A stretch of 64,000 nucleotides of DNA, from positions 3,126-67,125 of the forward strand of contig JACRHH010000018.1 in the NCBI GenBank assembly GCA_016212095.1. Reading direction: 5' to 3'. The stretch is from Nitrospirota bacterium. Lineage in GTDB: Bacteria > Nitrospirota > Thermodesulfovibrionia > SZUA-242. The position numbers and the translations under genes are program-made. The first letter of the stretch is position 1; every line of letters starts with the position of its first letter. Below the pieces are notes generated by a model. It ran no database searches, had not been told where the DNA came from, and saw only the letters and a list, made by a program, of their open reading frames with translations. Positions 1-44,969 of the stretch are shown piece by piece.

Positions 1-1
1 C

Positions 2-151
2 GGCGATGAACAGGCTAAGGAGATTCAGGCACTCTTTGAGTCAACGCGCAAGGGTGATTTCGCTCAAATCCTTGCTGATAAGATAAGCGAGGGGGCGGCT
101 TTCATCGTTCCAGTGTATATAAAGGACGCCATTGAGGCTCTCGTAAAATGA
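2..151 (+). CDS. 3' end of an upstream gene (partial, function unknown)
   Basis: Frame open from window edge (..GDEQAKEIQALFESTRKGDFAQILADKISEGAAFIVPVYIKDAIEALVK), stop TGA 149-151 overlapping the next ATG in an ATGA arrangement. Confidence 0.3.
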   Translation, partial: GDEQAKEIQALFESTRKGDFAQILADKISEGAAFIVPVYIKDAIEALVK

Positions 152-1907
152 ACGGGTGCATGTTCAATCCGACACCAGAGCAGCAAAAGGTCATTTACCA
201 TGAAAGTTCGGCCTTCATAACGGCTTGCCCCGGCGCTGGTAAGACCCGTGTAATGGTCGAACGGGCACGGCATATGCTGCGGACAAACCATAACGGGCGT
301 GGCGTCGCATTTTTGTCGTTTACGCGCGCGGCCGTGTCGGAGCTTGAAGAACGATTGCGGCAGGAAGCATTGCTCTGTTCCCCAGTGTTTCCGCATTTCA
401 TCGGCACATTCGATAGCTTCATATGGCAATTTGTCGTCGCACCGTTTGGAATAACGGGCATAGAAGCCGTGCCTCGCCTTATTCCTGATAAGGGCTGCCG
501 CATAGTTCAGCCCTTCGAAAAGGCCCAGCCCCTTCCTCTTTCCTGTTTTGATCGCGTAACAGGCAAGATTGATGCCGTCGCTACGCTTCGGCTTCGTTTC
601 GATGTAAACAAAAAAAACCGGCTCTCATAAAGGCATTCGAAACCGCTGCCATAAAGATGCAAACCCGGTTCCGTGAACGGGGGGAGCTAGATTTTGACGA
701 TGCGAGGGCGCTGGCTGTAACCCGGCTTCAGTGTGCTGATTTTTCCAAACGGCTCTCCACGGCTCTCGCTGCACGATTCCGTGAAATCATCATTGATGAG
801 GCACAGGACTGCAATCCGGCAGATCTGGATATCATCAGATGGCTTCGTGATGCCGGGATTCCAACAAAGGTAATCTGTGACCCGCACCAGTCAATTTTTG
901 AGTTTCGCGGCGGCGTCACCGATCAGCTTTTCGCCTTTGCCGACACCTTTGGTAATGACGACCAGCTTGGTATGAGCGGGAATTTTCGGTCCAGCGGTAA
1001 TATCTGCAAAGCGATCGTGATGTTAAGGGCGGCAGAGTCCAGAAATATTGTCGATGCGCCATTTGGTGAATTCAAAAACGAGCAGGCACGTATCTGCATT
1101 TTATCCTATTCGAGCAAATCTGTCTCCGCAGCGATCGGTGAGAAATTTGTCAACCTTTTGAAGGAGGTGCAAATTGATGTTGCCAAAGCCCCAGTATTGG
1201 CCGCAACCAAAAACAGCGCATTCAATGCTATCGGCCGGCCGGTGGTCAAAGCGAAAAGGGATCTAACCCTGCGGCTTGCGGAGGCTGTCAGCGATTTTTA
1301 TTTCGCCTTCGAGTCTGGCAAGCAGAAATCCGCAATTGAGAAGTTTCACGCTGTTTTCTTGGAGTTGCAGGGGAGATTGCCTGGCAAAAGCTATTACCAG
1401 TATATGGTCGAGCATGATCTGAAGCCAGACGAATGGCGTCCAGAAATGCTGCAAATTCTTCGTGCGCTCCGGTATGATCCCGAAATTTACGACGATGCTG
1501 ATACATGGCACAACAGCGCGAAGGAGCTTCTCAAACCGTCTCTGCCTCCAAATAGCCCATCAATCTCTCAGAAGCTCAAGAAAAACAAAGACATTGCGGA
1601 CGTTCTTAGACTACCCTCAACTGAGAGTCCGCCGGCAAAGACTATCCATTCGGTGAAAGGGATGGAGTTTCCTGCCGTTTGCATCGTGACGGTTGCTCAG
1701 ACGCTGAAAGGCATTCTGGATTATCTCGAAACAGGTGCGCCGGTTGAGAAAGCCGAAATGGCACGCGAATTTTATGTCGCCGCGTCAAGAGCTCAGCGCC
1801 TTTTGGCAATTGCAGCGCCCAGAAGCCAAGCAGCAAGGTTTGCCGCACACCTTCGAATGGCTGGCGCAACTGTGACTGTGGTAGACATCAATATTGAGAA
1901 GCAGTAA
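148..1907 (+). pseudogene. UvrD/Rep-like superfamily 1 helicase, split into two ORFs (148-630 and 657-1907) by a frameshift at an A8 homopolymer (610-617)
   Basis: Walker A ACPGAGKT, motif Ia LSFTRAA, motif II IIIDEAQD, motif III VICDPHQSIFEFRGG, motifs V/VI KTIHSVKGMEFPAV and YVAASRA; downstream reading frame is open back to 609 across the A-run. Confidence 0.6.
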
Positions 1908-1922
1908 CCATCAGGAGCCCCC

Positions 1923-2762
1923 ATGCCCACCAGCAAGCATAAAAACGCCGTTACACCCGCCACCGGCGAGTTGCTTCTCTACCAGACCGTGGAGGGTAAG
2001 ACGCGGATCGAAGTCCGTATGCAGGATGAAACGGTCTGGTTGAGCCAAAAGCAACTGGCCGATCTGTTTCAGACCTCAATTCCCAACATCAACATGCACA
2101 TTAAAAACATTTTCGATGAAGGTGAGCTTTCCGATGTTTCAGCTATTCAGGAATTCTTAATAACTGCCGCAGACGGCAAGAACTACCAGACAAAATTTTA
2201 CAACCTCGACGTGATCATCTCCGTCGGCTACCGGGTAAACAGCATTCGCGGCACACAGTTCCGCATCTGGGCAACCCAACGGCTGCGGGAATACATCATC
2301 AAAGGGTTTGCAATGGATGACGAACGCCTCAAACAGGCGGGCGGCGGCAATTACTTCGATGAGCTACTGGCCCGCATTCGCGACATCCGGTCGTCGGAAA
2401 AGGTTTTCTGGCGCAAGGTGCTGGATATTTATGCAACCAGCATCGATTATTCCTCGAATACGGAAACCTCGCGCAAATTTTTCGCCGCGATCCAGAACAA
2501 GATGCACTGGGCCGCGGACGGACACACCGCCGCCGAGATCATTCACGAACGGGCAGACGCGGCAAGGCCGAACATGGGATTGACCGCATGGTCGGGCGAC
2601 GCGCCGCGCAAGGCCGATGCTGAGGTGTCGAACAGGTCTGGAACGAAAACCTCTACACCATGCGCGGGCGCGACGTGCATGAGCATGTGCATGAGGAGTC
2701 GTCCCACGATCTTGCCGGTGTGCGAATGGAACGCGCCCTGCCAGTCTGGTCAAGGCGGCTAA
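1923..2762 (+). CDS. RhuM-family protein, C-terminus apparently truncated or out of frame after about codon 235
   Basis: YNLDVIISVGYRVNSIRGTQFRIWATQRLREYIIKGFAMDDERLKQ block matches my recollection of RhuM proteins; last ~45 codons are Cys/Ser/Thr/Pro-rich and overlap the cas4 frame. Confidence 0.55.
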   Translation: MPTSKHKNAVTPATGELLLYQTVEGKTRIEVRMQDETVWLSQKQLADLFQTSIPNINMHIKNIFDEGELSDVSAIQEFLITAADGKNYQTKFYNLDVIISVGYRVNSIRGTQFRIWATQRLREYIIKGFAMDDERLKQAGGGNYFDELLARIRDIRSSEKVFWRKVLDIYATSIDYSSNTETSRKFFAAIQNKMHWAADGHTAAEIIHERADAARPNMGLTAWSGDAPRKADAEVSNRSGTKTSTPCAGATCMSMCMRSRPTILPVCEWNAPCQSGQGG

Positions 2763-3169
2763 ACCTTACCGGAAAGGCCGATATGGTGGAATTCCGCTGT
2801 GACGTTCCGTATCCTGTCGAGTACAAGTCCGGCAGGCAGAGGAAAGGCCGCCACGAGGAACTGCAACTCTGCGCCCAAGCGGTCTGCCTTTCGGAAATGT
2901 TCGGCGTGACGGTGGATCGCGGCGCGATATATTGGCACGGCTCGCGCGAGCGGCGGGAAGTTCCCTTCACTGACTCACTGCGTCTGGAGGTGGAACACGT
3001 TGCAGCCGCAGTGCATGAAATGATGGCGGGTTCGACGATTCCCCCGCCTGTAAACGACAAGCGATGCCGCGATTGCTCGCTCAGGGAATCGTGCCTGCCG
3101 AATGTGGTGGCGGCAAAGGGAAGAAGCCGCAAGGCTGTGCTGGAACTTTTCGAGGTGATGACGCCATGA
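2624..3169 (+). CDS. cas4: Cas4 RecB-like nuclease, 5'-truncated (first ATG at 2660; frame open from 2624)
   Basis: RecB-nuclease-type D..E.K pattern (GKADMVE...VEYKSG), QLCAQAVCLSEMFG, C-terminal Cys cluster CRDCSLRESC; the N-terminal region that normally carries the first Cys ligand is absent (in-frame stop at 2621-2623). Confidence 0.65.
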   Translation, partial: GVEQVWNENLYTMRGRDVHEHVHEESSHDLAGVRMERALPVWSRRLNLTGKADMVEFRCDVPYPVEYKSGRQRKGRHEELQLCAQAVCLSEMFGVTVDRGAIYWHGSRERREVPFTDSLRLEVEHVAAAVHEMMAGSTIPPPVNDKRCRDCSLRESCLPNVVAAKGRSRKAVLELFEVMTP

Positions 3170-4200
3170 AACAACTCCTTAACACGCTGTACGTCATGAC
3201 GCAGGGCGCGTATGTCTGCCTAGACCACGAAACGGTGAAGGTGGAGGTGGAGGGAAAAGTTCGGATGCAGGTTCCGCTTCATCACATCGGCTCGATTGTG
3301 ACGATGGGCAACGTAATGCTAAGCCCGTTTATCATGGGCCGATGCGCCGACGACGGCAGGGCGATTGTGATTCTGGGCAGAAGCGGACGCTTCAAGTGCC
3401 GTGTTGTCGGCAAGACAAGCGGCAACGTGCTTCTTCGTCATGCCCAGCACGAGGCGGTGCGCGATGGCGGGAAATCGATCCCGATTGCCCGCAACATCGT
3501 GGCCGGGAAGGTGAAAAACGCCAGACATATTCTACTGCGCGGAGCGCGCGAGGCCGACAACGCCGATGACGCAGGCGTTCTGAAAAACGCAGCCGACATT
3601 CTGGCCAATACGCTGTTTCATCTCAAGGATTGCGCCGACATCGACCGGGTGCGCGGCATAGAGGGCGAGGCGGCGAACGCCTATTTCGGCGTATTCGACC
3701 GGATGGTGAAGGAAGAAGCGCGCACGGTTTTCAGGTTCGACGGAAGAAACCGCCGTCCGCCGCTCGATCCGATGAACGCACTGCTGTCGTTTCTCTACAC
3801 GCTTTTGCTGTCCGACTGCGTAAGCGCGGCTGAAGGCGTGGGCCTCGATTCCCAGATGGGTTTTCTGCATGTGATGCGGCCCGGACGCCCGTCGCTGGGG
3901 CTGGACATGATGGAGGAATTCCGCGCCGTTCTGGCCGACAGGCTGGCGCTTACACTGATAAACCGCCGTCAGATAACGGAAAATCATTTCGAGCCAAGGC
4001 CCGGCGGCGCGGTTTACTTAAACGAAGACGGGCGCAAAACAGTTGTGACCGAATACCAGAAGCGCAAGCAGGACGAGCTTCATCATCCGCTGCTTGATGA
4101 AAAAGCGCCGTTCGGGCTTGTTCCGCACATTCAGGCCCGGCTTCTTGCGCGTCACCTTCGCGGCGACATGGATGAATATGTGCCGTTTTTGTATTCCTGA
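3166..4200 (+). CDS. cas1: Cas1 integrase (type I-C-like)
   Basis: ATGA overlap with cas4 stop; 344 aa; N-terminus [26 protein letters not shown] typical of Cas1; position cas4-cas1-cas2-array. Confidence 0.85.
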
Positions 4201-4214
4201 GCGAGGGCAAAACT

Positions 4215-4508
4215 GTGTGGGTGCTTGTATCGTATGACGTTTCCACCGAAACGCCGGAAGGCCGCAAAAGGCTCCGCCGCGTGGCGCAGATATGCAAGAA
4301 CTATGGACAGCGAGTGCAGAAATCGGTGTTCGAGTGTCAGGTGAACGAGATGAAGTTCGAGGAACTGCGGCGCGAGCTATTGCGGATTATCAATAAGGAT
4401 GAGGATAACCTGCGGCTCTATCGCCTGACGGAGCCACGGGAGCGGCATGTGGAAAGCTACGGCTTGATCAAAACGATATTGTTTGACGACGAGCCGCTGA
4501 TTGCGTAG
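4215..4508 (+). CDS. cas2: Cas2 (GTG start)
   Basis: 97 aa, [10 protein letters not shown]...[23 protein letters not shown] typical Cas2; directly after cas1 and before the repeats. Confidence 0.8.
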
Positions 4509-4598
4509 CGCGAACCTGTTGTGCATGAGAAAATGCCGGGAGGTTCGCGGATGGCGCAACAGCTTGATTATTGGAACATTTATTTGAAGCCGTCAAGC

Positions 4599-4794
4599 GT
4601 TGCGTCCGGTCGCAAGACCGGGCGAGGATTGAAACGCGGAAAGGATGGTATAACTTGCTGTAAGTTCACGCTACAACAGCGTGAGCGTCGCGCCCGGTCG
4701 CAAGACCGGGCGAGGATTGAAACCGGTCGTCTCTCTCCGCGCTGGTTATCAGGCACGGTCGCGCCCGGTCGCAAGACCGGGCGAGGATTGAAAC
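4599..4794 (+). CRISPR. CRISPR mini-array: three 37-bp repeats (4599-4635, 4687-4723, 4758-4794), spacers of 51 and 34 bp
   Basis: Consensus GTCGCGCCCGGTCGCAAGACCGGGCGAGGATTGAAAC with 9-bp stem/GCAA loop and ATTGAAAC 3' handle typical of type I-C; first repeat has 2 mismatches. Confidence 0.75.
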
Positions 4795-4805
4795 TGCGCG
4801 GCGGC

Positions 4806-4823
4806 GCATCGCAATGCGTCTCT
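4806..4823. repeat. Partial inverted copy of the palindromic element that is tandemly repeated at 6042-6131
   Basis: GCATCGCAATGCGTCTCT matches the reverse complement of the 30-bp unit core (GACGCATCGCAATGCGTCT). Confidence 0.3.
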
Positions 4824-5343
4824 ACCTGCACGCGGCCTGCACCGTTGAGATTGGCAGAAATAGTTGCAGTGGATGATCTGGAATCGCCAGAAACCCGAAT
4901 TGCTCATAAAATCGTCCGGCTTCGTCATCCTTTGCATCGACAAAGAGGCCGATTACGCCTGCATGTCCAGCGATAAGCGATGTCCGGTGAACCGCATCGG
5001 CAAGCAGCAGTTTGCCGTACCCTTTGCCCTGTTCCTTCCGGGATACCGCAAGACGGGCAAGACGCACCGCAGGCAGACCATGCAGCGGGTATTTCCGGGC
5101 ATAATCATCAGGAAGTTGCTCGACAGACAATTCGCAGAGCGTGAGAGTGTAGAAGCCGAGCATGGCTGGCGTGCCGGCGGTCAGCACGAATGTCCGTGAA
5201 ATACCTTTCGACGAATGCTGACGCGCGATTGTCCGGAGGAACTCGTTCAGCGCCGGAACGCCGCAGTCGAAACCGTTACGGTCATGGATGCGGTCAAGAA
5301 GGGTTATTTCCGGCAATGGTTTTATTGTGCTGACGCATGGCAT
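4822..5343 (-). CDS. GNAT-family acetyltransferase toxin (TacT-like)
   Basis: 173 aa; acetyl-CoA motif RLAVSRKEQGKGYGKLL; paired with an upstream DUF1778-type gene. Confidence 0.7.
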   Translation of the reverse strand: MPCVSTIKPLPEITLLDRIHDRNGFDCGVPALNEFLRTIARQHSSKGISRTFVLTAGTPAMLGFYTLTLCELSVEQLPDDYARKYPLHGLPAVRLARLAVSRKEQGKGYGKLLLADAVHRTSLIAGHAGVIGLFVDAKDDEAGRFYEQFGFLAIPDHPLQLFLPISTVQAACR

Positions 5344-5584
5344 CCATCAGGTATTCGTTCGGTTCAGGCGGATTCTCGATGAGCGAAAACACCGCATCCG
5401 CCGAAGCGGTTGAAAGCTTGATTATGCGCTCTCCCTCAAGAATCGCATTGGCTTTCTCAAGGGCGGACTGGACGACAAACTGGTTAAGCGTTGCGCCAAC
5501 CGATTGAGCGGCTTCCAGTATCCGCTCATACACGGCTGTCGGCATACGGGCCGGTATTCGTTCCTCGGCGATTGTGCGTGCCAT
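5294..5584 (-). CDS. DUF1778-family antitoxin (TacA-like), start at the internal ATG 5584
   Basis: MARTIAEERIPARMPTAVYERILEAAQSVGATLNQFVVQSALEKANAIL; GGAGGTGA ribosome-binding site before the ATG; overlaps toxin start. Confidence 0.65.
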   Translation of the reverse strand: MARTIAEERIPARMPTAVYERILEAAQSVGATLNQFVVQSALEKANAILEGERIIKLSTASADAVFSLIENPPEPNEYLMDAMRQHNKTIAGNNPS

Positions 5585-5681
5585 TGATGTCACCTCCGGA
5601 TAGATTTTAATAAGGTGGCGCCAAAATGGCAACTTTATAATCGTTTCCGCCCGGCATATACTAGACCGTGCAAGGATCGAA

Positions 5682-6041
5682 ATGTTGAAGTCTAATTCTG
5701 ATGGCATTGTCTACTCCACCGGGCAGGGCAGAATCTGTTCCGCCTGCGGCAGGCCCGCGGCCAACTGCGAATGCGGCCGCAGGCAAGCGCCGCCAAATGG
5801 CGATGGAATCGTCCGTGTCGGCATCTCGACGAAAGGCCGCAAGGGCAAGGGTGTTACCGTGATCAGCGGCGTTCCCCCTGGCGAAGGCGGTCTCGACGAG
5901 TTGGCGCGGCGGCTCAAGCAGAAATGCGGGGCCGGAGGAACCGTGAAGGACGGCGTTATCGAAATTCAGGGCGATTTCCGCGACATCCTGGTGGCGGAAC
6001 TGACGAAACAGGGCTACAAGGTGAAACGCGCTGGCGGGTAG
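5682..6041 (+). CDS. yciH: Translation initiation factor SUI1/YciH family protein
   Basis: GKGVTVISGV...KCGAGGTVKDGVIEIQGDFRD..L...GYKVKRAGG matches the SUI1 fold signature. Confidence 0.7.
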   Translation: MLKSNSDGIVYSTGQGRICSACGRPAANCECGRRQAPPNGDGIVRVGISTKGRKGKGVTVISGVPPGEGGLDELARRLKQKCGAGGTVKDGVIEIQGDFRDILVAELTKQGYKVKRAGG

Positions 6042-6131
6042 AGACGCATTGCGATGCGTCTCTGCTGATCAAGACGCATTATGATGCGTCTCTGCTGATC
6101 AAGACGCATTATGATGCGTCTCTACTGTTCG
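6042..6131. repeat. Three tandem copies of a 30-bp unit, each containing an 8-bp-arm palindrome
   Basis: AGACGCATT(GC/AT)GATGCGTCTCTGCTGATCA x3 immediately after the yciH stop. Confidence 0.8.
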
Positions 6132-9373: not shown

Positions 9374-10564
9374 TTACTGCATCCAATCGTCACCAGGCAT
9401 GATTCGATGCATAAACTCATCGAACATAGGGACTGTGAATATTGTATCGCCATGATGGGGACTCCAAACCATGCCTTTGGAGATTAACTGGCTTCTGGTC
9501 GGACCGAGAGAAGTTACTTCACGTCCCAGCTTTTCAGCAATGCCTCCTGACCGATGCGGTCCGGGGCCAAGTTCAGCCATCGCACGGAGGTATATTTTCT
9601 CTGAGGGGGTGAGTCTATCAAACCTTACACGAAAGAAACTTTCATCGAGTGCGGCTATGGCGGAGGCTGACGCGTTTTTAACGTCCTCTTCTGTGATTGG
9701 CGACGCTTCCGCTGCATCCCACGAATGCTTGCCCCATTCCTGCACAAAATAAGGGTAGCCGCGCGTCTCTTTCACAATGAGGTCTAATGCTTCAGGGGTC
9801 ACTTCGACACCCTGATCTTTCGCCGGTTTCGCAATGGCCAGTTTTGTCGATTCCGGAGTAAGCGGCCCGATATCGGGAAAGTCGAACAGCCGTTCCGCAT
9901 AAGATTTCGCTCGACCCATCCGGCCCCTCAATTGCGGTAATCCAGCACCCACGAGAACGACAGGAAGACGGCGCTGGGCGGTACGATGCAGTGAGGTGAT
10001 GAGGGCCGCGAGCTCTTCCTCCCTTACATACTGTAACTCATCAGCAAAGATCACCAAGGCCGTGCCTGCTGCTTGCGCAGCTGCTCCGGCAGCCTCCAGC
10101 AACGCCTGCAGATCATGCTCCAGATCACCGTTGTCTGCCAGTCCAGGCTCAGGATCAAAGTCAAATCCCACCTCGATGTCTTCATATTTCACTTTGAGTG
10201 ACTTGGCGAATCCCGCCAGTGCCCTGAGCGCCCTCTGGGCAAGACTCTTGGCTTTCTCATTCCGTGAAAGCCTGAGCAGTGCCTGGCGTAACTGGGGAGA
10301 TAGGAGTGCCGGTAATGAACGATTTTCAGGAGCCTCTACCCGCAATGTCTGAATGCCGGTTCCTTCCGCATCATCTCTCATTCGATCCAGCAATACTGTT
10401 TTACCTACGCCTCGAAGTCCTACCATCAGGATACTCTTTGTGGGCAGACCTCGCCGCACGCGTTCGATGGCCACGCGGACAGTTTCCCGCACATCATCCC
10501 GGCCGGCGAGTTCTGGCGGCGGCGTACCCGCACCAGGAGCAAAAGGGTTTGTTATGGGATCCAT
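9374..10564 (-). CDS. AAA+ ATPase (ORC1/Cdc6-like)
   Basis: Walker A GLRGVGKT, Walker B VIFADELQ, 396 aa. Confidence 0.65.
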   Translation of the reverse strand: MDPITNPFAPGAGTPPPELAGRDDVRETVRVAIERVRRGLPTKSILMVGLRGVGKTVLLDRMRDDAEGTGIQTLRVEAPENRSLPALLSPQLRQALLRLSRNEKAKSLAQRALRALAGFAKSLKVKYEDIEVGFDFDPEPGLADNGDLEHDLQALLEAAGAAAQAAGTALVIFADELQYVREEELAALITSLHRTAQRRLPVVLVGAGLPQLRGRMGRAKSYAERLFDFPDIGPLTPESTKLAIAKPAKDQGVEVTPEALDLIVKETRGYPYFVQEWGKHSWDAAEASPITEEDVKNASASAIAALDESFFRVRFDRLTPSEKIYLRAMAELGPGPHRSGGIAEKLGREVTSLGPTRSQLISKGMVWSPHHGDTIFTVPMFDEFMHRIMPGDDWMQ

Positions 10565-10707
10565 CGAAGAATTATACCAAAATTAGCAAGTTTATAAAAC
10601 AAACATAAACCTGATAAATTTACTCAAATTAAACCCGCCTGATTTTGTTCAATAAAATGATACCCTAAAAACCTTCATCACCTCATCCCCCCCAATGAGT
10701 TATTTAC

Positions 10708-10842
10708 TCATCGGTAGAACCGCATTCCCGGACTGGCCGGGTTCAGTTGCAGATAGAAGGCGGTGGTCTTTGCGGCCTTCTGCTCGTCGCCGGTCAGTTT
10801 GACGAGGCTGTCGGTGAAGGTGTCGGAGATGCGGAAGTTCAT
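10708..10842 (-). pseudogene. Truncated paralog fragment of the 9058-9336 gene (first 44 codons then stop)
   Basis: About 130 bp nearly identical to 9199-9336 starting exactly at the ATG; followed by a relic resembling the 3' end of the methyltransferase gene. Confidence 0.45.
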
Positions 10843-10861
10843 GTGACAGCCAAGCAGCAAG

Positions 10862-11698
10862 TTACTCAGCCAATACTGGCTGTTGTGGATCGGCACCGAG
10901 GCTGATGTGATCCAGACGCCACTTCTTCAACGCCTTCGATTGGCGATAACTCATGGCTTCCTCGGAAATTACATCAACGTATCGAAGTTCTATTCCCTGC
11001 CAGTTGCCTGTTTCAGCGTTAAACAGCCTTGCCCTGAAAGCTTGTTCGATTTCAGCTTGCGCTTGATTGGCGGCGGCTTCCGCAGCATAAAAATCAGGCT
11101 CGGTCGTATGAAGGAGCGTTACGTCAAGCACATAAACATCATCAAGTCCTTCGTGGCATATCTCTTGCCCCTCGTCAACATCGAAAAATACAGCGGTAAT
11201 CATTTTGCCATGCGGTTTTACGGCTTTGGCAATCTTGTCTGATAACTTTGCGGCACTCAAGCGACGCTCAAATTCGTTCGGGAATGCAGATCGACGGTAT
11301 CGTGATGCCAGCCAAAGTTGAAAAGTAACAAGTTCCGAAGGAGAAAGCCGGGAATCATTATCTGGTGTAAAGTCTATGAGCGACTCTTTGAGAATGCTGC
11401 GTTTTTCTGCGGAAACAAATTCAGCCAGCAACGGCTTGTTGCCTTCGAACTCCAAATGGAGCGTCCGTGGCGATTTCGCATGTGTATTCAGGCCATTAAG
11501 TTTCTGAATCCGATACCCAACAATTACCTCTACATGTGGTTCCCTATCTGGGAGTTGGGTTAAATCGCAGTGATGAGTTGCAACGATAACCACCGTATCG
11601 CCGGGATGTGTCGGATGTATCAGACCAAGTGCTGCTACAGATTCACTTGCAAGCAAATGTCCTTGCCGCCATGGCGTATCCCTCGTCCATTCCGGCAT
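10862..11698 (-). CDS. Hypothetical protein, 278 aa, no recognisable motifs
   Basis: Long ORF co-directional with neighbours; visibly AT-richer than flanking genes. Confidence 0.45.
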   Translation of the reverse strand: MPEWTRDTPWRQGHLLASESVAALGLIHPTHPGDTVVIVATHHCDLTQLPDREPHVEVIVGYRIQKLNGLNTHAKSPRTLHLEFEGNKPLLAEFVSAEKRSILKESLIDFTPDNDSRLSPSELVTFQLWLASRYRRSAFPNEFERRLSAAKLSDKIAKAVKPHGKMITAVFFDVDEGQEICHEGLDDVYVLDVTLLHTTEPDFYAAEAAANQAQAEIEQAFRARLFNAETGNWQGIELRYVDVISEEAMSYRQSKALKKWRLDHISLGADPQQPVLAE

Positions 11699-11703
11699 GG
11701 CGG

Positions 11704-12378
11704 CTACTGCACCACGTCGTTTTCTGCCATCAGATCGGAATCGGCAGAGCTTTGAGACATTTTACGGTTGGCAAAACGCGCATCAAGGCGTTCTCTTTGA
11801 CTTGTCTCCTGTTCGACAATCTGGCGGAGTAACTGCGCGGCATCACGGGCCGATCCACCATCTTGAATCATCTCGAAAATATTCCTGCCATTGAATACCT
11901 TGCGTTTCAATAGAGCCCCATTAACCGGAATTCCTGCTTCGGCAAACATGTCAGCCGCAACTGCAAGTTCGCTCATCTTGGCTAAATGCTCGGGTGTGGG
12001 TTGCTCCCCCCTCAACCAGTTGTAAATTGTCTGGCGTGATACGTTAAAGGCCTTGGCGAGATCGGATATAGCAGGGGAAAGGACTTTGCGAATTTGCTCC
12101 ATGTCCTCGGCAGGTGTTCTTGCGGATACTGCCTTTACAGCGTTAGAACGTATGAAACCGGATGATAGTAACTCATTATTTCGATGAAGCTGCAACCGGC
12201 CAAGATCGTCTGCAAAAGCACCCGTTCCTTGGGCAACCAGCAATCCAGCCGTAAATAAAGCAACCTTTGACAAGCTGCATACACATGAAGAAGCGCCAGT
12301 TGAATATGGTCGATCATTAAACCATCCACCTTGCCTGGAATATCCCGCTTCCATTCTGTAATCTCCTGTTATTCCCAT
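11704..12378 (-). CDS. XRE-family helix-turn-helix protein (true start possibly the ATG at 12102, giving 133 aa)
   Basis: HTH segment LSPAISDLAKAFNVSRQTIYNWLRG; the upstream part of the ORF may be non-coding. Confidence 0.5.
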   Translation of the reverse strand: MGITGDYRMEAGYSRQGGWFNDRPYSTGASSCVCSLSKVALFTAGLLVAQGTGAFADDLGRLQLHRNNELLSSGFIRSNAVKAVSARTPAEDMEQIRKVLSPAISDLAKAFNVSRQTIYNWLRGEQPTPEHLAKMSELAVAADMFAEAGIPVNGALLKRKVFNGRNIFEMIQDGGSARDAAQLLRQIVEQETSQRERLDARFANRKMSQSSADSDLMAENDVVQ

Positions 12379-13163
12379 GAATTAAGGGCAAATTGCGTGA
12401 CTGTTGCCCGAAACGATTTCTCGATTTCAACGTGAAGCGCAACCAGTCTGGAAGCAATTGTTTCAAGGCTGAAGGCCTCGCGTTGTGCATAAAATGCATC
12501 GGAATCAATTATTGCGTGACGGCCTTCCTGCGCGGTAAATCGTGGATGTATCTGCGGTGCAAACGGAATTATTTCCTGTGGCAGTCCGACCCGGCCATCT
12601 TGAATAATTACCCGCGATACAAGTTGTCCACTTGCGTTAATAGTGACTGTTTCACTGTATGTATGTGCCAGTTTGCCGTCAAGCTTATGCGAAAGCCCTA
12701 ACACTTCTTGTGCAAGGTAGTCAGAAAACGACTCATCGGGTTTTGGCAGCACGGCATCAAAATAACGCAGCCCAACACGCTCGGTAAAATCAAGTCGCAC
12801 AACGTCATGAATAGTGCCCAATCCATCCAGCAGCGTCTTGAAAAACGTCTCGGAAGTGTCATAATCGGTTGTCTGAAGAGCCAGCGCGTTATGTTCCAGA
12901 ACAAACTCTGTGGTGCGATTAATATTTCCGAAAACGCAACGAGCCTGAGGAATGAATGACGGTTTTGGGGCCTGACTTCCGTCACTTGGCGAGCCAAATT
13001 GCAAGACGATTTTTTGAATTGTTTCCTGTTTAAAATCCGGAAAGTGTGCAGCCCTCATCCGTTCCTGAATGGTTGGCAAATACCCCTCCATTTGAAGAAC
13101 AGGATTGAACTGAACTTGTGCCACAGTAAAGTAGACCGGCGCGTTTTTCATTTTCTTGCCCAT
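12369..13163 (-). CDS. Hypothetical protein, 264 aa (tentatively TIGR04255-like)
   Basis: ATG with GGAGG ribosome-binding site; N-terminus MGKKMKNAPVYFTVAQVQFNP; family assignment is from memory only. Confidence 0.45.
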   Translation of the reverse strand: MGKKMKNAPVYFTVAQVQFNPVLQMEGYLPTIQERMRAAHFPDFKQETIQKIVLQFGSPSDGSQAPKPSFIPQARCVFGNINRTTEFVLEHNALALQTTDYDTSETFFKTLLDGLGTIHDVVRLDFTERVGLRYFDAVLPKPDESFSDYLAQEVLGLSHKLDGKLAHTYSETVTINASGQLVSRVIIQDGRVGLPQEIIPFAPQIHPRFTAQEGRHAIIDSDAFYAQREAFSLETIASRLVALHVEIEKSFRATVTQFALNSWE

Positions 13164-13182
13164 AATAGTCCTCCACTACAGC

Positions 13183-13223
13183 GGTTTACACTGAGGTTTA
13201 CACTTTACACCCAAGTTGACACT
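13183..13223. promoter_or_regulatory. Iterated direct repeats TT(T/G)ACAC upstream of the 264-aa gene
   Basis: GGTTTACACT at 13183-13192 and 13195-13204, TTTACAC 13204-13210, TTGACACT 13216-13223, just upstream of the ribosome-binding site on the minus strand. Confidence 0.3.
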
Positions 13224-13270
13224 ATTGCAAACAATGAACATCCACACCGTTGATGCGCCTCAAATTCCAG

Positions 13271-16057
13271 TTACACCCGAAACACCTTCATAACCTCATC
13301 CCCCAAATGATTAATCACCTTCACCGCAATCCGCCCGGTTTTCGGCTTTTCAAATGGTCGCGATGTGTCGCTATTCAGCGTAGCCCAGGCGTCTTCGTTG
13401 ATCTCGGCTTTGAGAGTGGTTTTCAGCGCCTTGTACGGGTCGTTTGCTCCAAGGAAGTAGGCGTGGCGGACGAAGAAGCTTTCTTCATTATAATCTGTGT
13501 CGATGAACCAGCAGGCTATTCCTTCGGCGCCGTCGCTGCGGACTTCGCCGGTGTTGGGGTGGAACACGTCCACGCCGTTGACTTTGACCCGCACTTGTCC
13601 GTCTTCGGCATCGAGAATATCAATATCCGGCTCGCCGAAGATGACGAAGAGGTTGCCCTTGCCGGTGTTCTTGAGGTCGTCTGCCATGTGTAGGTCGGCG
13701 TTCATGCGAGCCTTGAGCACGGGGATGCGGCCAAGTTTGTTGAATTCCGACGAATGGGCGTCGTAGTTGAAGGCGCAGGTGATCAGCGCGTCGAAACCGG
13801 CGTCGCCGGCCTCGCGGGCGGCGGCCACCAGATCGGGGCGGGAGACTGTGCCGAATTCGGGGCCGATGAAGATGGCGGCGCGTTTTTCACCGCCAGCATC
13901 CGCAAAGCGTCCTTCGGCGCAGATAAGATAGCCCGGCCAAGGGGTTAGCGCTGTGAAGATGACTTTATCTTCCTTGTGCGCCTGTTGAACCCCGGCTGTC
14001 TTGAGGTTTTCCAGAATCATCTGTACGAAGTTCCGCTCCGTGCCGTAGCCTTCCTTCGGTTCCGCCACGGTGTCGATCAATTCGTCGTCCACTCCCACAG
14101 CCAGAACCCGGTGCGGCAACAGGCTCTCCACGGTGAACGGCCCGGCAACGCGAACACTTTTCTTGTCGTCGTAGGGTTTATCGTAGAGATATTCAAACTC
14201 GGCCTTGGCGGCGATGGATGCGTCGATTGCCTTTTGCCGGGCGATGCGTTGCCGCCACCAGTCGGCGTGCAGCTTCTTCGCCGCCTCCGGCCATTTTTCG
14301 TCGGCCTCGCGGGGAATTTCCCACTCCTGCCAATTTTTACCGAGTGACTGGTTAAGCTGCTGGCGCAATGGCTCCAGCGTCTGTTGGAACTTTTCCCAGA
14401 TAACGTCGATTTCGGCGTTGTTGGCGATGGATTTTAGGGTGATGTGCGGCACGCGCTCATAAACAAAGCCCTGCCGGATGTCGCCACGAGTGGGCTGGGT
14501 CGACGGCAAGGTTCGGGTGATCTCGGCTTCCTTGCGTTGGCCGTCGGGCGAGTCAGCCAGCAGATAGAAAGGGTAGCGCGCTCCCATGATCCGGGCACGG
14601 GCCAGCGCCAAAGCAACGCGCGAGGTGTCGATGGTGATCCAGCGGCGGCCCCACTGTTCAGCTACATAAGCAGTAGTGCCTGAACCGCAGGTTGGGTCGA
14701 GAACCAAGTCGCCGGGGTCGGTCGCCAAAAGAATGCAGCGCGCAATGACCTTCTGGCCTGTTTGAACAACGTATGTCTTGTCCTCGGAAAATCCGGTCAT
14801 CTTTACGTCGTTCCAATAGTTTGCAATTGGAACAACTTCGAAGTCTTTCAAAAATCGTTTGTACATGAGAGATTTGCCAATTGGCCTTAAACGCCCAGTT
14901 TTCGCAAGCTGCGTCAGGCCCTTGGCATCGGTCTTAAACGTGCCCTTGCCAGGAGAAAAAGCTACACCGTTGTAGATAAAAGACGTGACGTCGGTTCCTT
15001 GTGCTGGTCGCTGGCTGGTCAAGTTGTCACAAGCAAAAACTTTCGTCTTATCTATGTTGCCGCCGTTTCCTTCTATCTCACTAGAATTAAGCCGTCGATC
15101 TACGCCATCGCCTTCATCAAACCAAGTGTATTGGGTAGTTCCCGCTTCGCCTAGGACTTTGAGTCGAAATGGTGGTCTAAATTTGAGTGCCGCACGATCT
15201 TTGGCAAACCAAAGGATGTAATCACTAATCGAAGCAAGGCCTTCTGTCGAGGTGCTGCTCGTTTTCTCGAATGAGATTTCTGACACAAAATTCTCCTCCC
15301 CAAACACCTCATCCATCACCGCCCTCACCCGATGAACATTCTCATCCCCAATCTGCACAAAGATCGACCCGGAATCCGTCAATAAATCCCGTGCCACAGT
15401 AAGACGGTCACGCAGATAAGTCAGATACGAATGAATCCCATCCCGCCAAGTATCGCGGAACGCCTTGACCTGTTCCGGCTCGCGGGTGATGTGGCCGACG
15501 TTGCCATCCTTCACGTCGCGGCTGGTGGTGCTCCACTGAAAGTTGGAGTTGAACTTGATGCCGTAGGGCGGATCAAAGTAGATGCACTGCACCTTGCCGC
15601 GCAGACCTTCGCGCTCGGCCAGCGATGCCATGACCTGGAGGCTGTCGCCAAGGATCATGCGGTTGGCCCAATGGGCGTCGTGCTGGTAAAACTCGGTCTT
15701 GGCGCTCTCGCTTGGGAGCCCGTTGAAGTCGGCGAAGAGGTCAGGCTGAACCTGCCTGCTCTTTTCCTCACGGGTTTGACGCAACAGGTCATCGATCAAC
15801 ACCTTGGGGTGAACCTTCTCCTGAATGTAGAGAGGCGGGGCATGGACTACCAGATCAGACCAATCCTTTTCGTCCTTGCCGCGCCAGACGAGCTGTGGGT
15901 CGAGGTCGCGGTTGCGGCGTTCGTAGGCAACTCGCACCGGGCTTTTGTCCGCATCGTGCATTATCGACTGATGCTCGGCGGTGGGAATGTTCTTGCGTGT
16001 CGCGTCCTCGTGGGTGAGGGTTTCGACGGTGAGTGGGGTAATTGGTCTGTTGGCCAT
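13271..16057 (-). CDS. DNA methyltransferase, beta-class (Type III Mod-like), 928 aa
   Basis: Motif IV IYFDPPYG precedes motif I DPTCGSGTT; NRMILGDSLQVMASL resembles the Mod N-terminal region; long C-terminal extension. Confidence 0.75.
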   Translation of the reverse strand: MANRPITPLTVETLTHEDATRKNIPTAEHQSIMHDADKSPVRVAYERRNRDLDPQLVWRGKDEKDWSDLVVHAPPLYIQEKVHPKVLIDDLLRQTREEKSRQVQPDLFADFNGLPSESAKTEFYQHDAHWANRMILGDSLQVMASLAEREGLRGKVQCIYFDPPYGIKFNSNFQWSTTSRDVKDGNVGHITREPEQVKAFRDTWRDGIHSYLTYLRDRLTVARDLLTDSGSIFVQIGDENVHRVRAVMDEVFGEENFVSEISFEKTSSTSTEGLASISDYILWFAKDRAALKFRPPFRLKVLGEAGTTQYTWFDEGDGVDRRLNSSEIEGNGGNIDKTKVFACDNLTSQRPAQGTDVTSFIYNGVAFSPGKGTFKTDAKGLTQLAKTGRLRPIGKSLMYKRFLKDFEVVPIANYWNDVKMTGFSEDKTYVVQTGQKVIARCILLATDPGDLVLDPTCGSGTTAYVAEQWGRRWITIDTSRVALALARARIMGARYPFYLLADSPDGQRKEAEITRTLPSTQPTRGDIRQGFVYERVPHITLKSIANNAEIDVIWEKFQQTLEPLRQQLNQSLGKNWQEWEIPREADEKWPEAAKKLHADWWRQRIARQKAIDASIAAKAEFEYLYDKPYDDKKSVRVAGPFTVESLLPHRVLAVGVDDELIDTVAEPKEGYGTERNFVQMILENLKTAGVQQAHKEDKVIFTALTPWPGYLICAEGRFADAGGEKRAAIFIGPEFGTVSRPDLVAAAREAGDAGFDALITCAFNYDAHSSEFNKLGRIPVLKARMNADLHMADDLKNTGKGNLFVIFGEPDIDILDAEDGQVRVKVNGVDVFHPNTGEVRSDGAEGIACWFIDTDYNEESFFVRHAYFLGANDPYKALKTTLKAEINEDAWATLNSDTSRPFEKPKTGRIAVKVINHLGDEVMKVFRV

Positions 16058-16058
16058 G

Positions 16059-17147
16059 CTATCGACTGCCTTCCATCATGGATTCCTTGGTCAAAATCGC
16101 ATTCAGCGCGAGGTTGATGTAGTAGTTTGTGCGCCCCTTTTTCTGCTTTTGGAGAAAGCCGCCCTGTGTCAAGGTGTCGAGATACTTGGTGGCGGTTAGC
16201 CGCGAAACTTTGAGATCACGTTCGACAAACTCGATTTTGGTGTAGGGGTGGGTAAAGAGGTTGTTGATCAAATCCTGACTGTAAAATTTGTATTGCGCAC
16301 GGATGCGGTGCTTGGCATCCATCAACGCTGCCTTGATGGCATGAATGGTTTCTATGGTATCGGTGGCGGTGGACTCTATGGCTGTGAGCATGTAAAGCGC
16401 CCACTCTTCCCAAGTGTTCTGTTCACGCACCGATTGCAGCAGGCGGTAATAGTCCGGCTTGGTGCGGACGATGTAGCGGCTGAGGTAGAGCACGGGAATG
16501 TCGAGCAGGCCTTCCTTGACCAGATAGAGGACGTTTATAATGCGCCCGGTGCGGCCATTGCCATCGTAGAACGGGTGAATGCTTTCAAACTGGTGATGGA
16601 TAAGCGCCATTTTGATGAGAGGGTCGGCTGCGAATAGCTCGCTATCGTTCATGAAGCGTTCCAGATCACGCATGAGTGCGACTATGGCTTCCGGTTCCTG
16701 CGGCGGTGTATAAACCGTCTGACCGGCGCCATTTTTTAGCGCAGTGCCTGGCAGCTTGCGGAATCCGGCGTTGTTCTGTTCCAGTTCGGCCTGTATCTGG
16801 ATGATGTGGTTGGCGGTGAGCAGTCCACTTCGGCGAACCTGTTCATACCCTACCCGCAGAGCCTGACGGTAGCGCAGCACCTCCTTGGCGGACGGGCTGG
16901 CCAGGTTTTCGGGAAAGAGATCATCCTGAAACAGCTCATCATGGGTGGTGACGATGTTCTCGATAGCGGAACTGTCCTTGGCCTCCTGCATACCAAGTGT
17001 GCTGATGAGAACGCCCTGATTGGGGATTGAAGCGGCCACCCCTTTGAGTTCGGCCAGTTTGCGGCTGGCTAATGTCAGCTTTTTGAGGATGGCTGGGGTA
17101 TCGAAGCGCTCGGTCGGCAGTTGTTCCAACGGCTGCATGGTGGTCAT
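16059..17147 (-). CDS. Fic/Doc-family protein
   Basis: Fic motif HPFYDGNGRTGR; 362 aa; sits between the res and mod genes. Confidence 0.8.
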   Translation of the reverse strand: MTTMQPLEQLPTERFDTPAILKKLTLASRKLAELKGVAASIPNQGVLISTLGMQEAKDSSAIENIVTTHDELFQDDLFPENLASPSAKEVLRYRQALRVGYEQVRRSGLLTANHIIQIQAELEQNNAGFRKLPGTALKNGAGQTVYTPPQEPEAIVALMRDLERFMNDSELFAADPLIKMALIHHQFESIHPFYDGNGRTGRIINVLYLVKEGLLDIPVLYLSRYIVRTKPDYYRLLQSVREQNTWEEWALYMLTAIESTATDTIETIHAIKAALMDAKHRIRAQYKFYSQDLINNLFTHPYTKIEFVERDLKVSRLTATKYLDTLTQGGFLQKQKKGRTNYYINLALNAILTKESMMEGSR

Positions 17148-17168
17148 TACCCCCCTCCTTCTTGAACA

Positions 17169-17202
17169 ATATGCATAGAAAAGAGACGTTTTCTATACAT
17201 AT
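17169..17202. promoter_or_regulatory. 14-bp-arm inverted repeat (operator-like) between res and fic
   Basis: ATATGCATAGAAAA-gagacg-TTTTCTATACATAT, one mismatch; lies just upstream of the fic ribosome-binding site. Confidence 0.4.
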
Positions 17203-17250
17203 TGCCTGCTTCATGTATACAACAGGGCAAAACAGTATGCATTACAGGTT

Positions 17251-20200
17251 TCATCGCAACTCTCCCCATTCCCCCTTCACGATATTTCCGATCATCTTGT
17301 CAAACTCCGCCGCTACCTTGGCATCGAAGTCGGACTCCATGCGGTAAACCTCGGTAAACTCGGCAAAGGCCCATCGGCCATAGCTTTTCAGGTTATTAAC
17401 GCCGGGAACCCAGTAGGTTTCCATGGTGGCCTTTTTCTCCTTGGCGTCCTCGCGGCGGTAGCCCTTGATCTCGACGATCAGGCGCAGCGGGTCATCTTCG
17501 CCATGTCCGTCGTCAACCAGAACGATGAAGTCGGGGATGTATTTCCGCGTTTCCGAGCCGTAACGGTATGGAACCTCAAGGCCAAGATTGTGATTTTTGA
17601 CGTAGGCTTTCACTTTGGGGTGCGCTTCGGCCACCCGGCAGAATTCGGCTTCCCAATCGCTGTCGAGGATAATCCAGTTGATCTGACAGCGGCGGGCGTC
17701 AGTCTCCCATCGATCCTTTTTGGATGTGTTAAAATTCACATGGATGGTGGAGCCGACGGGATTGTAGGGATCGAGTACCGCCTTAATGGGGCTTCCGCCG
17801 ATATGTTCACGGTTGATTCCCGCCATAATACGCTCGCAGGCCATGTCAGCAAGCATCTTGTATTTAAGCTGGGCCGGATATGTTTTCCCCGTGCAAACAA
17901 GGTAGTTATCAAGCCATTGTCTGGCAATGCGCTTTATCTGTCCGAATAGATGAAGCTGTGGTTCTCCGTTAGCATCACGCCACCTTGTCAAAAGAAGGTG
18001 TGAAGTTAATTCATAGACAACCTGTGAGTGTCTTATATCTCCCGTATGAACGAGGTTAAGATCAACCGATGCACCAATGATCCCGGAATTTCTGGTCTCT
18101 GTTGCACCAACCAGGTCGGGGGTCAACTCCATCACAGAGTCATCGTTGAACTTTGCGCTCAGCCGTTCCTCTGGAAGTTCGACGCGATAGCCTGCAACGC
18201 GGGGAAAGCGAATTTCGAGTGGATCTCGATCAGGTCGAACAGCCTTGACTTGAATGGTCTCGCGCGGAGGCTGAGGCGGCGCTATCACCGGCTTCGCGGT
18301 GAAGTCGAAGGGAATACCCAGCACATCGGCATATTCCACGTTGAACAGCCCTTCCTCATTCAGATCGTAAGACTGGCGGCGAAGCGCCCGGCCAATGACC
18401 TGCTCGCACAGAAGCTGAGTGCCGAAGGCGCGAACGCCCAAGACATGTGTCACGGTGCTGGCATCCCAACCCTCGGTAAGCATGGAGACAGAGACGACGC
18501 AGCGTATCGCTCCGCCCAACTGGCCGGGCTTGCCCACTGTATTCATAACCTCGCGGAGAAGAGTCACGTCATCGAGTTGTTTCCCTTGTTGCATTTCATC
18601 GGCGAGCTTTCCCCCGCGTTCTACGATCTCGCGGCGGAAGCGTTCAATCTCATCAGCAGCCATGCTGCGGAAGCTATCGTCGAGCGCTTCACCGGATTCG
18701 AGTTGCTCGCTGTCAATGAGTAGTGTGTTTGGACGAGCAAGCGGATTGCCGTGTTCATCGGTATTGCGGAACAACGGCAAACGGCCAAATTCGAGCTGGC
18801 TTGTGCCGTCCTTGTTCTGCCGTTGAAACCCGGAGATATAATCGTACACCAGCTTGGAGGTGGAGGTGTTATTGCAGACAATAATGAAACATGGCGGCAC
18901 CTTAATTCCACTCTGCTGCCAAAGGTTGTAAGTTTTTTCGTAATGCCCATAGAGCGCTTCCAGTGCGGTTTGCAATTGTGGCGGCAGGTCAAGCGGGTTC
19001 AGGGCCTCGGTCTTCCCGCGCCCCTTTTTCGGCATCTTTGTACGAATGTGTTCCCAGAGGTTGCGAAACATCGGCATTTCGCCGCCGGGGATGTTGTCGG
19101 CCACCGGCACGCGCGGGAGCTTTACGATGCCGCATTCGATGGCGTCCATAAGCGAAAAGTCGCTCATTGTCCAGGGGAACAGAGTTCCTTCGGCATAGCC
19201 GGAGCCGCTCAGGAAAAACGGGGTTGCCGACAAGTCGATTACGCGAGCAAGCCCAAGCGTCCGGTTTACGATTTCAATGCCTGAAATCCAGAGCCGGGCC
19301 GCTTCGTTGTTCTTTTCGGCTTCCTTCTTCTCGTCGCCGGTCAGGTTCTCATCTTTGGCGTTATGGTTTGGTTTCTCACGGTAGCAATGGTGCGCCTCGT
19401 CGTTCAACACCATGATGTTCTTCAACCCCATCAGGCCGGGCATCACCCGCTGAATCATCTGCCCTTCGGTTTCCAGTGTGTCAAGCTCCCCGCCGCCGCG
19501 CCCTTGCAGCAACAGGCGGCCACCCTTTGACAACTCCATCCGTTCGCGCAGCTTGAAGGCATGGTAATTGGTTATGACGATTTTTGCCTTTTGCAGTTCA
19601 TCCAGCATGTCGCCTGGTATAAGCTCCCGGCTTTGGTAGTAGCTGTCAGGATCGTTGGGCTGAAGCACCCGAAGCCTGTCGCGGATGGTCAAACCGGGGG
19701 TGACGACCAGAAATCCCCGCGTAAACCGCTTGCTGGTTGGCCGACGCACCGCATTTATGGTTTGCCACGCAATCAGCATCGCCATGACCGTGGTTTTGCC
19801 CGCGCCGGTAGCAAGTTTCAGCGCCAGACGCATCAACTCCGGGTTGGCGTCGTTGTTTGCGTTGGCCAGATGCTCAAGGAAGCGTTTCTTGTGTTTATCG
19901 ACATTTGGGGCAACTTCGGTAAGCCAGATGGCGGTTTCAACAGCCTCGATCTGACAAAAAAACGGACGGATGCCATTGAACTGATGATGTCGCCAATGCT
20001 TTAGCAATCGCTCTGTTTCCGGAGAAACATGCCAGTCTTTCGGATTTTTGAGGCTGCGCCACTGATCAACGTGTTGACGCAGTTCATTTATGATGGAAGT
20101 GGCATCATACTGCTGCCCCTCTGTTGAAAGCCCCAAACCTTCATCAAAGACGAAACGCGGCTGTTCAGCGGCAACCTTGCGCTTCTTCGGCTTGGGTATT

Positions 20201-20433
20201 GGCGTGATGAATTCAGCCCGGCGGCGTTTTTCGATGATCTGCTGGGTCGGCTGCCCTGATGAATCAAGCTCCCAATGGCGAAGCGGATACCCGTATGGGG
20301 AATTAAGGATCGGCTGTTCGAAAAAGCGGTTATTCATTGACAGGAGAGCCTCCCGGTTGCCAACAGGTATTTTTTCTGAAACATTCCGTGATTCCGGACA
20401 AAACGATGTTGAAGATTGCCGTTTTTCCCTCAT
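17251..20433 (-). CDS. Type III restriction enzyme Res-like subunit: SF2 helicase with C-terminal PD-(D/E)xK nuclease
   Basis: Motif I LATGAGKTT, motif II VLNDEAHH, motif VI QVIGRALRR, C-terminal PDFIVLV...LIVEIKG. Confidence 0.7.
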   Translation of the reverse strand: MREKRQSSTSFCPESRNVSEKIPVGNREALLSMNNRFFEQPILNSPYGYPLRHWELDSSGQPTQQIIEKRRRAEFITPIPKPKKRKVAAEQPRFVFDEGLGLSTEGQQYDATSIINELRQHVDQWRSLKNPKDWHVSPETERLLKHWRHHQFNGIRPFFCQIEAVETAIWLTEVAPNVDKHKKRFLEHLANANNDANPELMRLALKLATGAGKTTVMAMLIAWQTINAVRRPTSKRFTRGFLVVTPGLTIRDRLRVLQPNDPDSYYQSRELIPGDMLDELQKAKIVITNYHAFKLRERMELSKGGRLLLQGRGGGELDTLETEGQMIQRVMPGLMGLKNIMVLNDEAHHCYREKPNHNAKDENLTGDEKKEAEKNNEAARLWISGIEIVNRTLGLARVIDLSATPFFLSGSGYAEGTLFPWTMSDFSLMDAIECGIVKLPRVPVADNIPGGEMPMFRNLWEHIRTKMPKKGRGKTEALNPLDLPPQLQTALEALYGHYEKTYNLWQQSGIKVPPCFIIVCNNTSTSKLVYDYISGFQRQNKDGTSQLEFGRLPLFRNTDEHGNPLARPNTLLIDSEQLESGEALDDSFRSMAADEIERFRREIVERGGKLADEMQQGKQLDDVTLLREVMNTVGKPGQLGGAIRCVVSVSMLTEGWDASTVTHVLGVRAFGTQLLCEQVIGRALRRQSYDLNEEGLFNVEYADVLGIPFDFTAKPVIAPPQPPRETIQVKAVRPDRDPLEIRFPRVAGYRVELPEERLSAKFNDDSVMELTPDLVGATETRNSGIIGASVDLNLVHTGDIRHSQVVYELTSHLLLTRWRDANGEPQLHLFGQIKRIARQWLDNYLVCTGKTYPAQLKYKMLADMACERIMAGINREHIGGSPIKAVLDPYNPVGSTIHVNFNTSKKDRWETDARRCQINWIILDSDWEAEFCRVAEAHPKVKAYVKNHNLGLEVPYRYGSETRKYIPDFIVLVDDGHGEDDPLRLIVEIKGYRREDAKEKKATMETYWVPGVNNLKSYGRWAFAEFTEVYRMESDFDAKVAAEFDKMIGNIVKGEWGELR

Positions 20434-28655: not shown

Positions 28656-28738
28656 TATCAAATATGCAAATGTGCATTTACAGCCGGGTGCCAATCGCCC
28701 GGCTGTTTTTTTTGAGGACATAAGCAGTAAAATATCTC

Positions 28739-44711: not shown

Positions 44712-44969
44712 GGTTTCGAAGTATACTTAACGCAAATTGAAAAGGCAAGCTCTCTCGAAATTAACCAGAGAAAATTCTGCTTGCAATCGTTCCACTATTG
44801 GAGTAAAAATATCTGAGCTTGGCCGGAAAAAAAAAGAACTGTAACTACCGGCAGGCGCTTCAAACGATAATGTAAATCAGTTCCGGAGGTTTTACGACGT
44901 CATGGACTGTAAAATCCGCCTTTCGGCGGCGCTTTATCACCAATCGGTTGCAAAGGCAACGGCAATAAG

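Follow-up and report, generated by a model that had tools for sequence, protein, structure and literature searches.

The Gabija system of Bacillus cereus VD045 is a two-gene operon in which a gene for an OLD-family ATPase-Toprim nuclease (GajA) is followed by one for an SF1 UvrD-like protein (GajB). A like operon logic is found in Xanthomonas campestris and Burkholderia pseudomallei, where class 2 OLD genes are paired with a UvrD/PcrA/Rep-like helicase gene; to our knowledge, no anti-phage function has been tested for the class 2 OLD proteins solved from these two species (PDB 6NJV and 6NK8). Some defence genes are moreover switched by homopolymers, as is known from phase-variable restriction-modification genes, where a 1-nt change in a mutable homopolymer within the ORF toggles the frame. 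In B. cereus, tetramers of GajA and dimers of GajB assemble into a 4:4 complex; defence in vivo needs each of the two proteins, and it is mainly the 1B domain of GajB that touches GajA (PMC10781630; PMC10681800).

Here, we describe a locus of the same two-gene type at the beginning of a 64,000-nt stretch of DNA (the window) from a Nitrospirota bacterium, in which the helicase gene is interrupted at a run of eight adenines (A8). Our reading, to which we give a probability of about 0.7, is that the locus represents the 3' end of a Gabija-type operon whose gajB was frameshifted by a single-base deletion, leaving the system off or nearly so.

The two genes of the operon

The window opens within the first gene, of which it holds the last 49 codons and the TGA at 149-151 (1..151, + strand), the start lying upstream. 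This 49-residue tail matches the PADLOC GajA profile PDLC00100 at positions 571-619 of 619 (E = 8e-19). The gene can be followed 500 nt further upstream on a Logan contig of run SRR12113407 (L001), which shares 1939 nt with the window at full identity. The 216-aa fragment read from it covers positions 404-619 of the same profile with 356 bits and contains the Pfam domain OLD-like_TOPRIM (27.1 bits, for a cut-off of 23.2). Its closest solved kin are the class 2 OLD proteins 6NJV and 6NK8, to which residues 3-213 of 216 align at an E-value of about 4e-9, a kinship that is only moderate, and both its Toprim glutamate (LLVEGIAE) and DxD (MTDGD) motifs align to the two structures. We therefore assign the upstream gene, from its sequence, to the GajA / class 2 OLD nucleases. 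The preliminary description had suspected a GajA-like gene here, which stands for the Toprim region, i.e. the C-terminal 216 residues, the N-terminal ATPase part being located upstream of both the window and the Logan contig. Relatives such as L164, whose GajA has 599 aa, do possess an N-terminal ATPase domain. Neither the 216-aa fragment nor a full-length relative, used as queries for homologues, led to a protein having this particular GajA C-terminus; exact-protein look-ups of the two gajB ORFs gave a 2.4-kb Logan contig as the single match, and an exact look-up with an approximate sequence of the nearby Cas2 gave none.

The gajA stop and the gajB start share an ATGA (148-151). Among 160 related loci that we fetched from genomes and metagenomes, a gene of ~600 aa of the OLD family ends at or overlaps the start of the helicase in essentially all those with sufficient upstream DNA, and the operon earlier proposed from the ATGA overlap is thus well supported.

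The reading frame of gajB is interrupted by a break at 616-618, followed by a stop at 628-630. Its 5' fragment (148..630, +) is an ORF of 160 aa that carries motifs Q (169-195), I or Walker A (223-246), Ia (313-345) and Ib (403-420), and whose final codons (616-627) are read out of frame up to the TAA at 628-630. The break lies at the 3' end of the A8 homopolymer (610..617, +). From there the 3' part (618..1907, +) continues one base back, in a frame that is open from 573; its first ATG, at 657, is 26 nt past the stop of the first ORF, and the 416-aa ORF that it begins (657-1907, stop codon 1905-1907) carries motifs II (DEAQD, 786-815), III (870-914), IV (978-995), V (1641-1670) and VI (1770-1805). 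All the SF1 motifs from Q to VI, first noticed as being spread over two ORFs that meet at the A8 run, could therefore be located; taken singly, neither ORF holds a complete ATPase site, motifs I and II being on different ones. A 123-kb contig in NCBI encodes the 416-aa ORF as MBI5142018.1, 'MAG: ATP-dependent helicase [Nitrospirae bacterium]'. Adding one base after 617 yields a protein of 586 aa, close to the ~585 aa predicted for a single inserted A, although A is the most parsimonious repair and not the sole one.

Once repaired by one base, the protein aligns to PDLC00149, the GajB profile of PADLOC, as a single stretch of residues 6-581 against positions 5-577 of 577 (848 bits, E = 6.9e-256), and contains the Pfam domains UvrD-helicase (102.9 bits), AAA_19 and UvrD_C. 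With housekeeping UvrD/PcrA/Rep it has in common the fold and motifs Q-VI, but it is ~140 residues shorter, adjoins an OLD nuclease gene and has a low GC content at third codon positions (GC3), and its score against the NCBIfam PcrA model is 85 bits, far below the equivalog cut-off of 911, and it is thus no housekeeping helicase. The initial impression of a protein short for UvrD and nearer to GajB is hence supported.

A search of 5.8 billion proteins returned 926 homologues at E < 1e-20, and the top 120 of these are almost all single proteins of ~581 aa, the nearest being 79% identical. More than 100 intact homologues of this length align without gaps across the junction of the repaired protein, where FDVNKK-K-PALIKA stands, in an alignment of 24 of them, against FDVSKKKPANIKA, FDVTKKKPAHIKA and FDVNKKNPAHIKA. 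The sole 100% match is the 416-aa ORF itself, indicating that an intact allele of this lineage is absent from the public record. The helicase family is found in Proteobacteria, Acidobacteriota, Desulfuromonadales and others, including on plasmids; a plasmid megablast with positions 1-2700 of the window gave no match. The GC3 of gajB is 0.54, against about 0.69 in neighbouring chromosomal genes, which points to horizontal acquisition, and gajA-gajB is a mobile defence module.

Comparison with the B. cereus system calls for some care in naming. The locus is like Gabija in that it matches the GajB profile over its full length and the GajA profile over its 404-619 end. However, gajB here would encode ~585 aa instead of 494 and is frameshifted, and the GajB chains of B. 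cereus match its N-terminal ~90 residues only (E about 4e-9 with a single sequence, 1e-17 with a profile). As a structural stand-in for the repaired protein we took homologue P0001, 79% identical to it, whose AlphaFold model (mean pLDDT 87) has its best fold matches in UvrD, Rep and PcrA (TM about 0.58), with B. cereus GajB at rank 42 (TM 0.36). Judged from sequence and from this model, the GajB clade to which our protein belongs would be no more like B. cereus GajB than it is like UvrD. The name Gabija is consequently used here in a broad sense, founded on profiles and operon structure, for a pair of class 2 OLD nuclease and UvrD-like helicase.

The frameshift site in relatives and in a second assembly

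In a DNA alignment with five close intact relatives, a single gap of 1 nt appears in the window; it lies in the A run, and for ~60 nt on each side the alignment has no further indel. The lost base is the third position of an AA_ codon ahead of CCG (616-618), with 616-617 being the remnant of a Lys or Asn codon; as A or G it would have encoded Lys, as C or T Asn, and relatives carry AAG or AAT there. Their sites read AAG AAA AAG followed by CCG or CCA (L002, L003), AAT AAG AAA AAT CCG (L165), AAG AGA AAG (L084) and AAA AAA ACA (L164). Across the 134 loci that could be aligned at this site, the longest A run is of at most 5 in 130, and of 6, 7 and 9 in one each. A run of nine is present, in frame (CAA AAA AAA AGC), in a distant Marinobacter MAG (L056), indicating that the site is able to gain long A runs independently.

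Lysine is more commonly encoded by AAA in gajB (19 of 34 Lys codons), and since long runs are also absent in the close relatives, the tract is a lineage-specific accident of codon choice. Its length is equally unremarkable, as the window has four A8 runs for 4.5 expected, i.e. no enrichment; what matters is the exact coincidence of this one with the frame break. We weighed a conserved programmed frameshift and discarded it: the homologues each have one ORF whose A run is interrupted, hence the slippery site is not conserved, and the fold of the downstream RNA does not surpass that of shuffled sequences (z = +0.57).

Disruption is not exceptional in the family. Among ~115 full-length relatives, gajB is broken in about six (L043, L094, L132, L133, L138 and L139), by two in-frame stops and four frameshifts at positions other than the one described here. 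The gajA gene is split in five relatives (L165, L006, L018, L043 and L084), in several of them next to an intact gajB; in L165, which is one of these, it lies at 686-2481 and is divided between two frames into 374 aa and 243 aa. Each gene is thus disrupted in about 5% of the sampled members.

The explanation most directly opposed to a deletion is an assembly or sequencing artefact, i.e. a genome that is in frame (for instance with A9) and possesses an intact gajB. The source is a MAG, homopolymers are the classic sites of indel errors, and the lack of further decay in gajB is also what an artefact would leave. However, the A8 is exactly reproduced by a second assembler, in the Logan assembly of SRR12113407 (100% identity over the 1939 nt), even if the reads are probably common to both assemblies, in which case a consensus error or an A8/A9 mixture would stay hidden. 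A systematic homopolymer error was also judged unlikely: homopolymers of 7 nt or more number ten in the window, and only the run at 610-617 meets a broken ORF, three others being in frame inside long ORFs. The 64 kb are densely filled with long intact ORFs, the longest of 1060 aa, and together with the harmless homopolymers they argue against error-prone homopolymer calling. A T8 run at 28706-28713, examined as a possible second break, was discarded, being intergenic, and the longest homopolymer of the window, an A9 at 44827-44835, falls in no ORF of 300 nt or more. On balance, we consider an artefact unlikely.

The lesion looks real, and it looks recent. The repaired protein differs at 3 of 127 otherwise invariant residues, within the range of 0 to 8 seen in intact homologues, and with its conserved residues intact a lesion that is real would be recent. 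The same freedom from other damage would be equally expected from an artefact or from a gene kept in use by slippage.

Probable consequence of the break and alternatives to loss

The simplest ancestral site would have been AAC AAA AAA AAA CCG, from which replication slippage at the 3' end of the A-rich Lys-Lys-Lys/Asn stretch would have turned A9 into A8. Translation from the native start would then end at the TAA at 628-630 after 160 residues, with Walker A and no Walker B, and an internal ATG would be the sole route to a product of the other 416 codons and their motifs II-VI. The A8 allele would hence yield a stub of 160 aa plus, at best, an N-terminally truncated fragment. In the AlphaFold model, the break is placed just ahead of a long helix (residues 158-177). 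As both proteins are required in B. cereus, a gajB split between motifs Ib and II would mean that defence is lost or strongly reduced, and the system off or nearly so; this is drawn by analogy from a distant system. The loss of gajB function, the slippage and its recent date are what we infer; the identities of the genes, the place of the frame break, the lack of conservation of the tract and the recurrence of A8 in a second assembly are what the data show. Most likely, then, the system has been recently inactivated.

A second possibility is that the tract is a phase-variable switch, toggling between A8 (OFF) and A9 (ON) through slipped-strand mispairing and so modulating a costly defence. As in phase-variable restriction-modification, the break falls exactly at a length-mutable homopolymer within a defence ORF, a single insertion restores the frame, and gajB is otherwise pristine. 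A further hint may come from a JGI metagenome contig (L088), which begins at the codon after Lys-Lys-Lys of a GajB 74% identical to ours (positions 1-20 of the contig); a start directly past the site could reflect an assembly-graph bubble, but such a coincidence has a probability of ~0.2 by chance. In contrast with phase-variable defence genes, the tract is conserved in no close relative, its length is at chance level in the window, and ON/OFF polymorphism was not observed: only the A8 allele is present in public assemblies and protein data, and the ON allele of the lineage is absent among the 5.8 billion proteins. In a gene of low GC3 whose commoner Lys codon is AAA, three consecutive AAA codons need no selection. 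Literature searches yielded no paper tying Gabija to phase variation, nor anything specific on Gabija pseudogenes. We thus find phase variation very unlikely, and think a little less still of the broader idea of an A8/A9 tract acting in the Nitrospirota population as a working ON/OFF switch or as a slippage-leaky valve on Gabija; if true, Gabija would have its first phase-variable system under homopolymer control.

The lesion might instead be tolerated, enough GajB being made through RNA polymerase slippage on the A8 or through -1 ribosomal frameshifting. The heptamer A_AAA_AAC at 612-618 is in the correct register for -1 slippage, which would give NKKNPA, and the two possible products, NKKKPA and NKKNPA, are exactly homologue-like; moreover, there are known cases of frameshifted genes being rescued when transcription slips on long runs of A (PMC5009743). 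However, the slippery site is unconserved, as seen above, the fold downstream offers no stimulatory structure, and inspection by eye found no Shine-Dalgarno-like motif upstream. Documented efficient cases involve runs of at least 9 or A_AAA_AAG (general knowledge and PMC5009743). With eight A's only and stimulators absent, a rescue at the percent level at most is to be expected (general knowledge and PMC5009743), and recoding strong enough to sustain defence seems to us a slimmer chance than switching. Finally, a functional split helicase, reassembled from products of 160 aa and 416 aa, can be set aside as barely credible: both ORFs are intact and only a short spacer separates the first stop from the second ATG, but the break parts Walker A from Walker B and falls just before the helix of residues 158-177 in the model, no homologue is split at this position, and no obvious ribosome-binding site was seen by eye ahead of 657.

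A damaged defence island

Downstream of gajB lies a rhuM-like gene (1923..2762, +), a PADLOC candidate (PDC-S05) that matches positions 6-227 of 330 of this profile and positions 2-168 of 252 of Pfam Virulence_RhuM. Its homology is lost near 2630, from where it runs out of frame into cas4 (2660..3169, +), which is itself without about the first 51 profile positions and whose frame has a stop at 2621-2623. It looks as if one deletion had fused the two genes. Intact cas1 (3166-4200) and cas2 (4215-4508) follow, then a CRISPR array at 4596-4794 consisting of three type I-C-like repeats that end in ATTGAAAC and are unequally spaced (88 and 71 nt). The first 30 kb of the window yielded no effector cas genes, and cas1-cas2 with the three repeats is an orphan CRISPR adaptation module. 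The frameshifted gajB therefore sits in a defence island with at least one other clear deletion.

Several further elements were observed in the surroundings. Directly past the CRISPR remnant, the minus strand encodes a GNAT acetyltransferase toxin together with its TacA-like antitoxin (4822-5707). A 30-nt unit, AGACGCATTGCGATGCGTCTCTGCTGATCA, which contains an inverted repeat, is present in three tandem copies at 6042-6131, flanked by a SUI1-family gene and a gene for an M16 peptidase, with a degenerate fourth copy at 4802-4831. After a few housekeeping genes, a second island of low GC3 (9374-20433, -) encodes an AAA_16/STAND-like ATPase, two small ORFs without family match, one of which has an HTH, and a type III restriction-modification system (Mod 13271-16057, Res 17251-20433, both -) with a Fic-domain gene (16059-17147, -) inserted between Mod and Res.

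We thus read the locus as an ordinary representative of the known Gabija defence family that was most likely disrupted recently. Its two ORFs, one of them deposited as MBI5142018.1, make up a single gajB pseudogene, and in annotation the locus deserves to be counted as a disrupted Gabija system. Reads with mixed tract lengths would make the operon a candidate phase-variable Gabija, of moderate interest. As a disrupted gene, it matters little beyond its correct annotation, and adds one more data point for the rapid turnover of defence islands.
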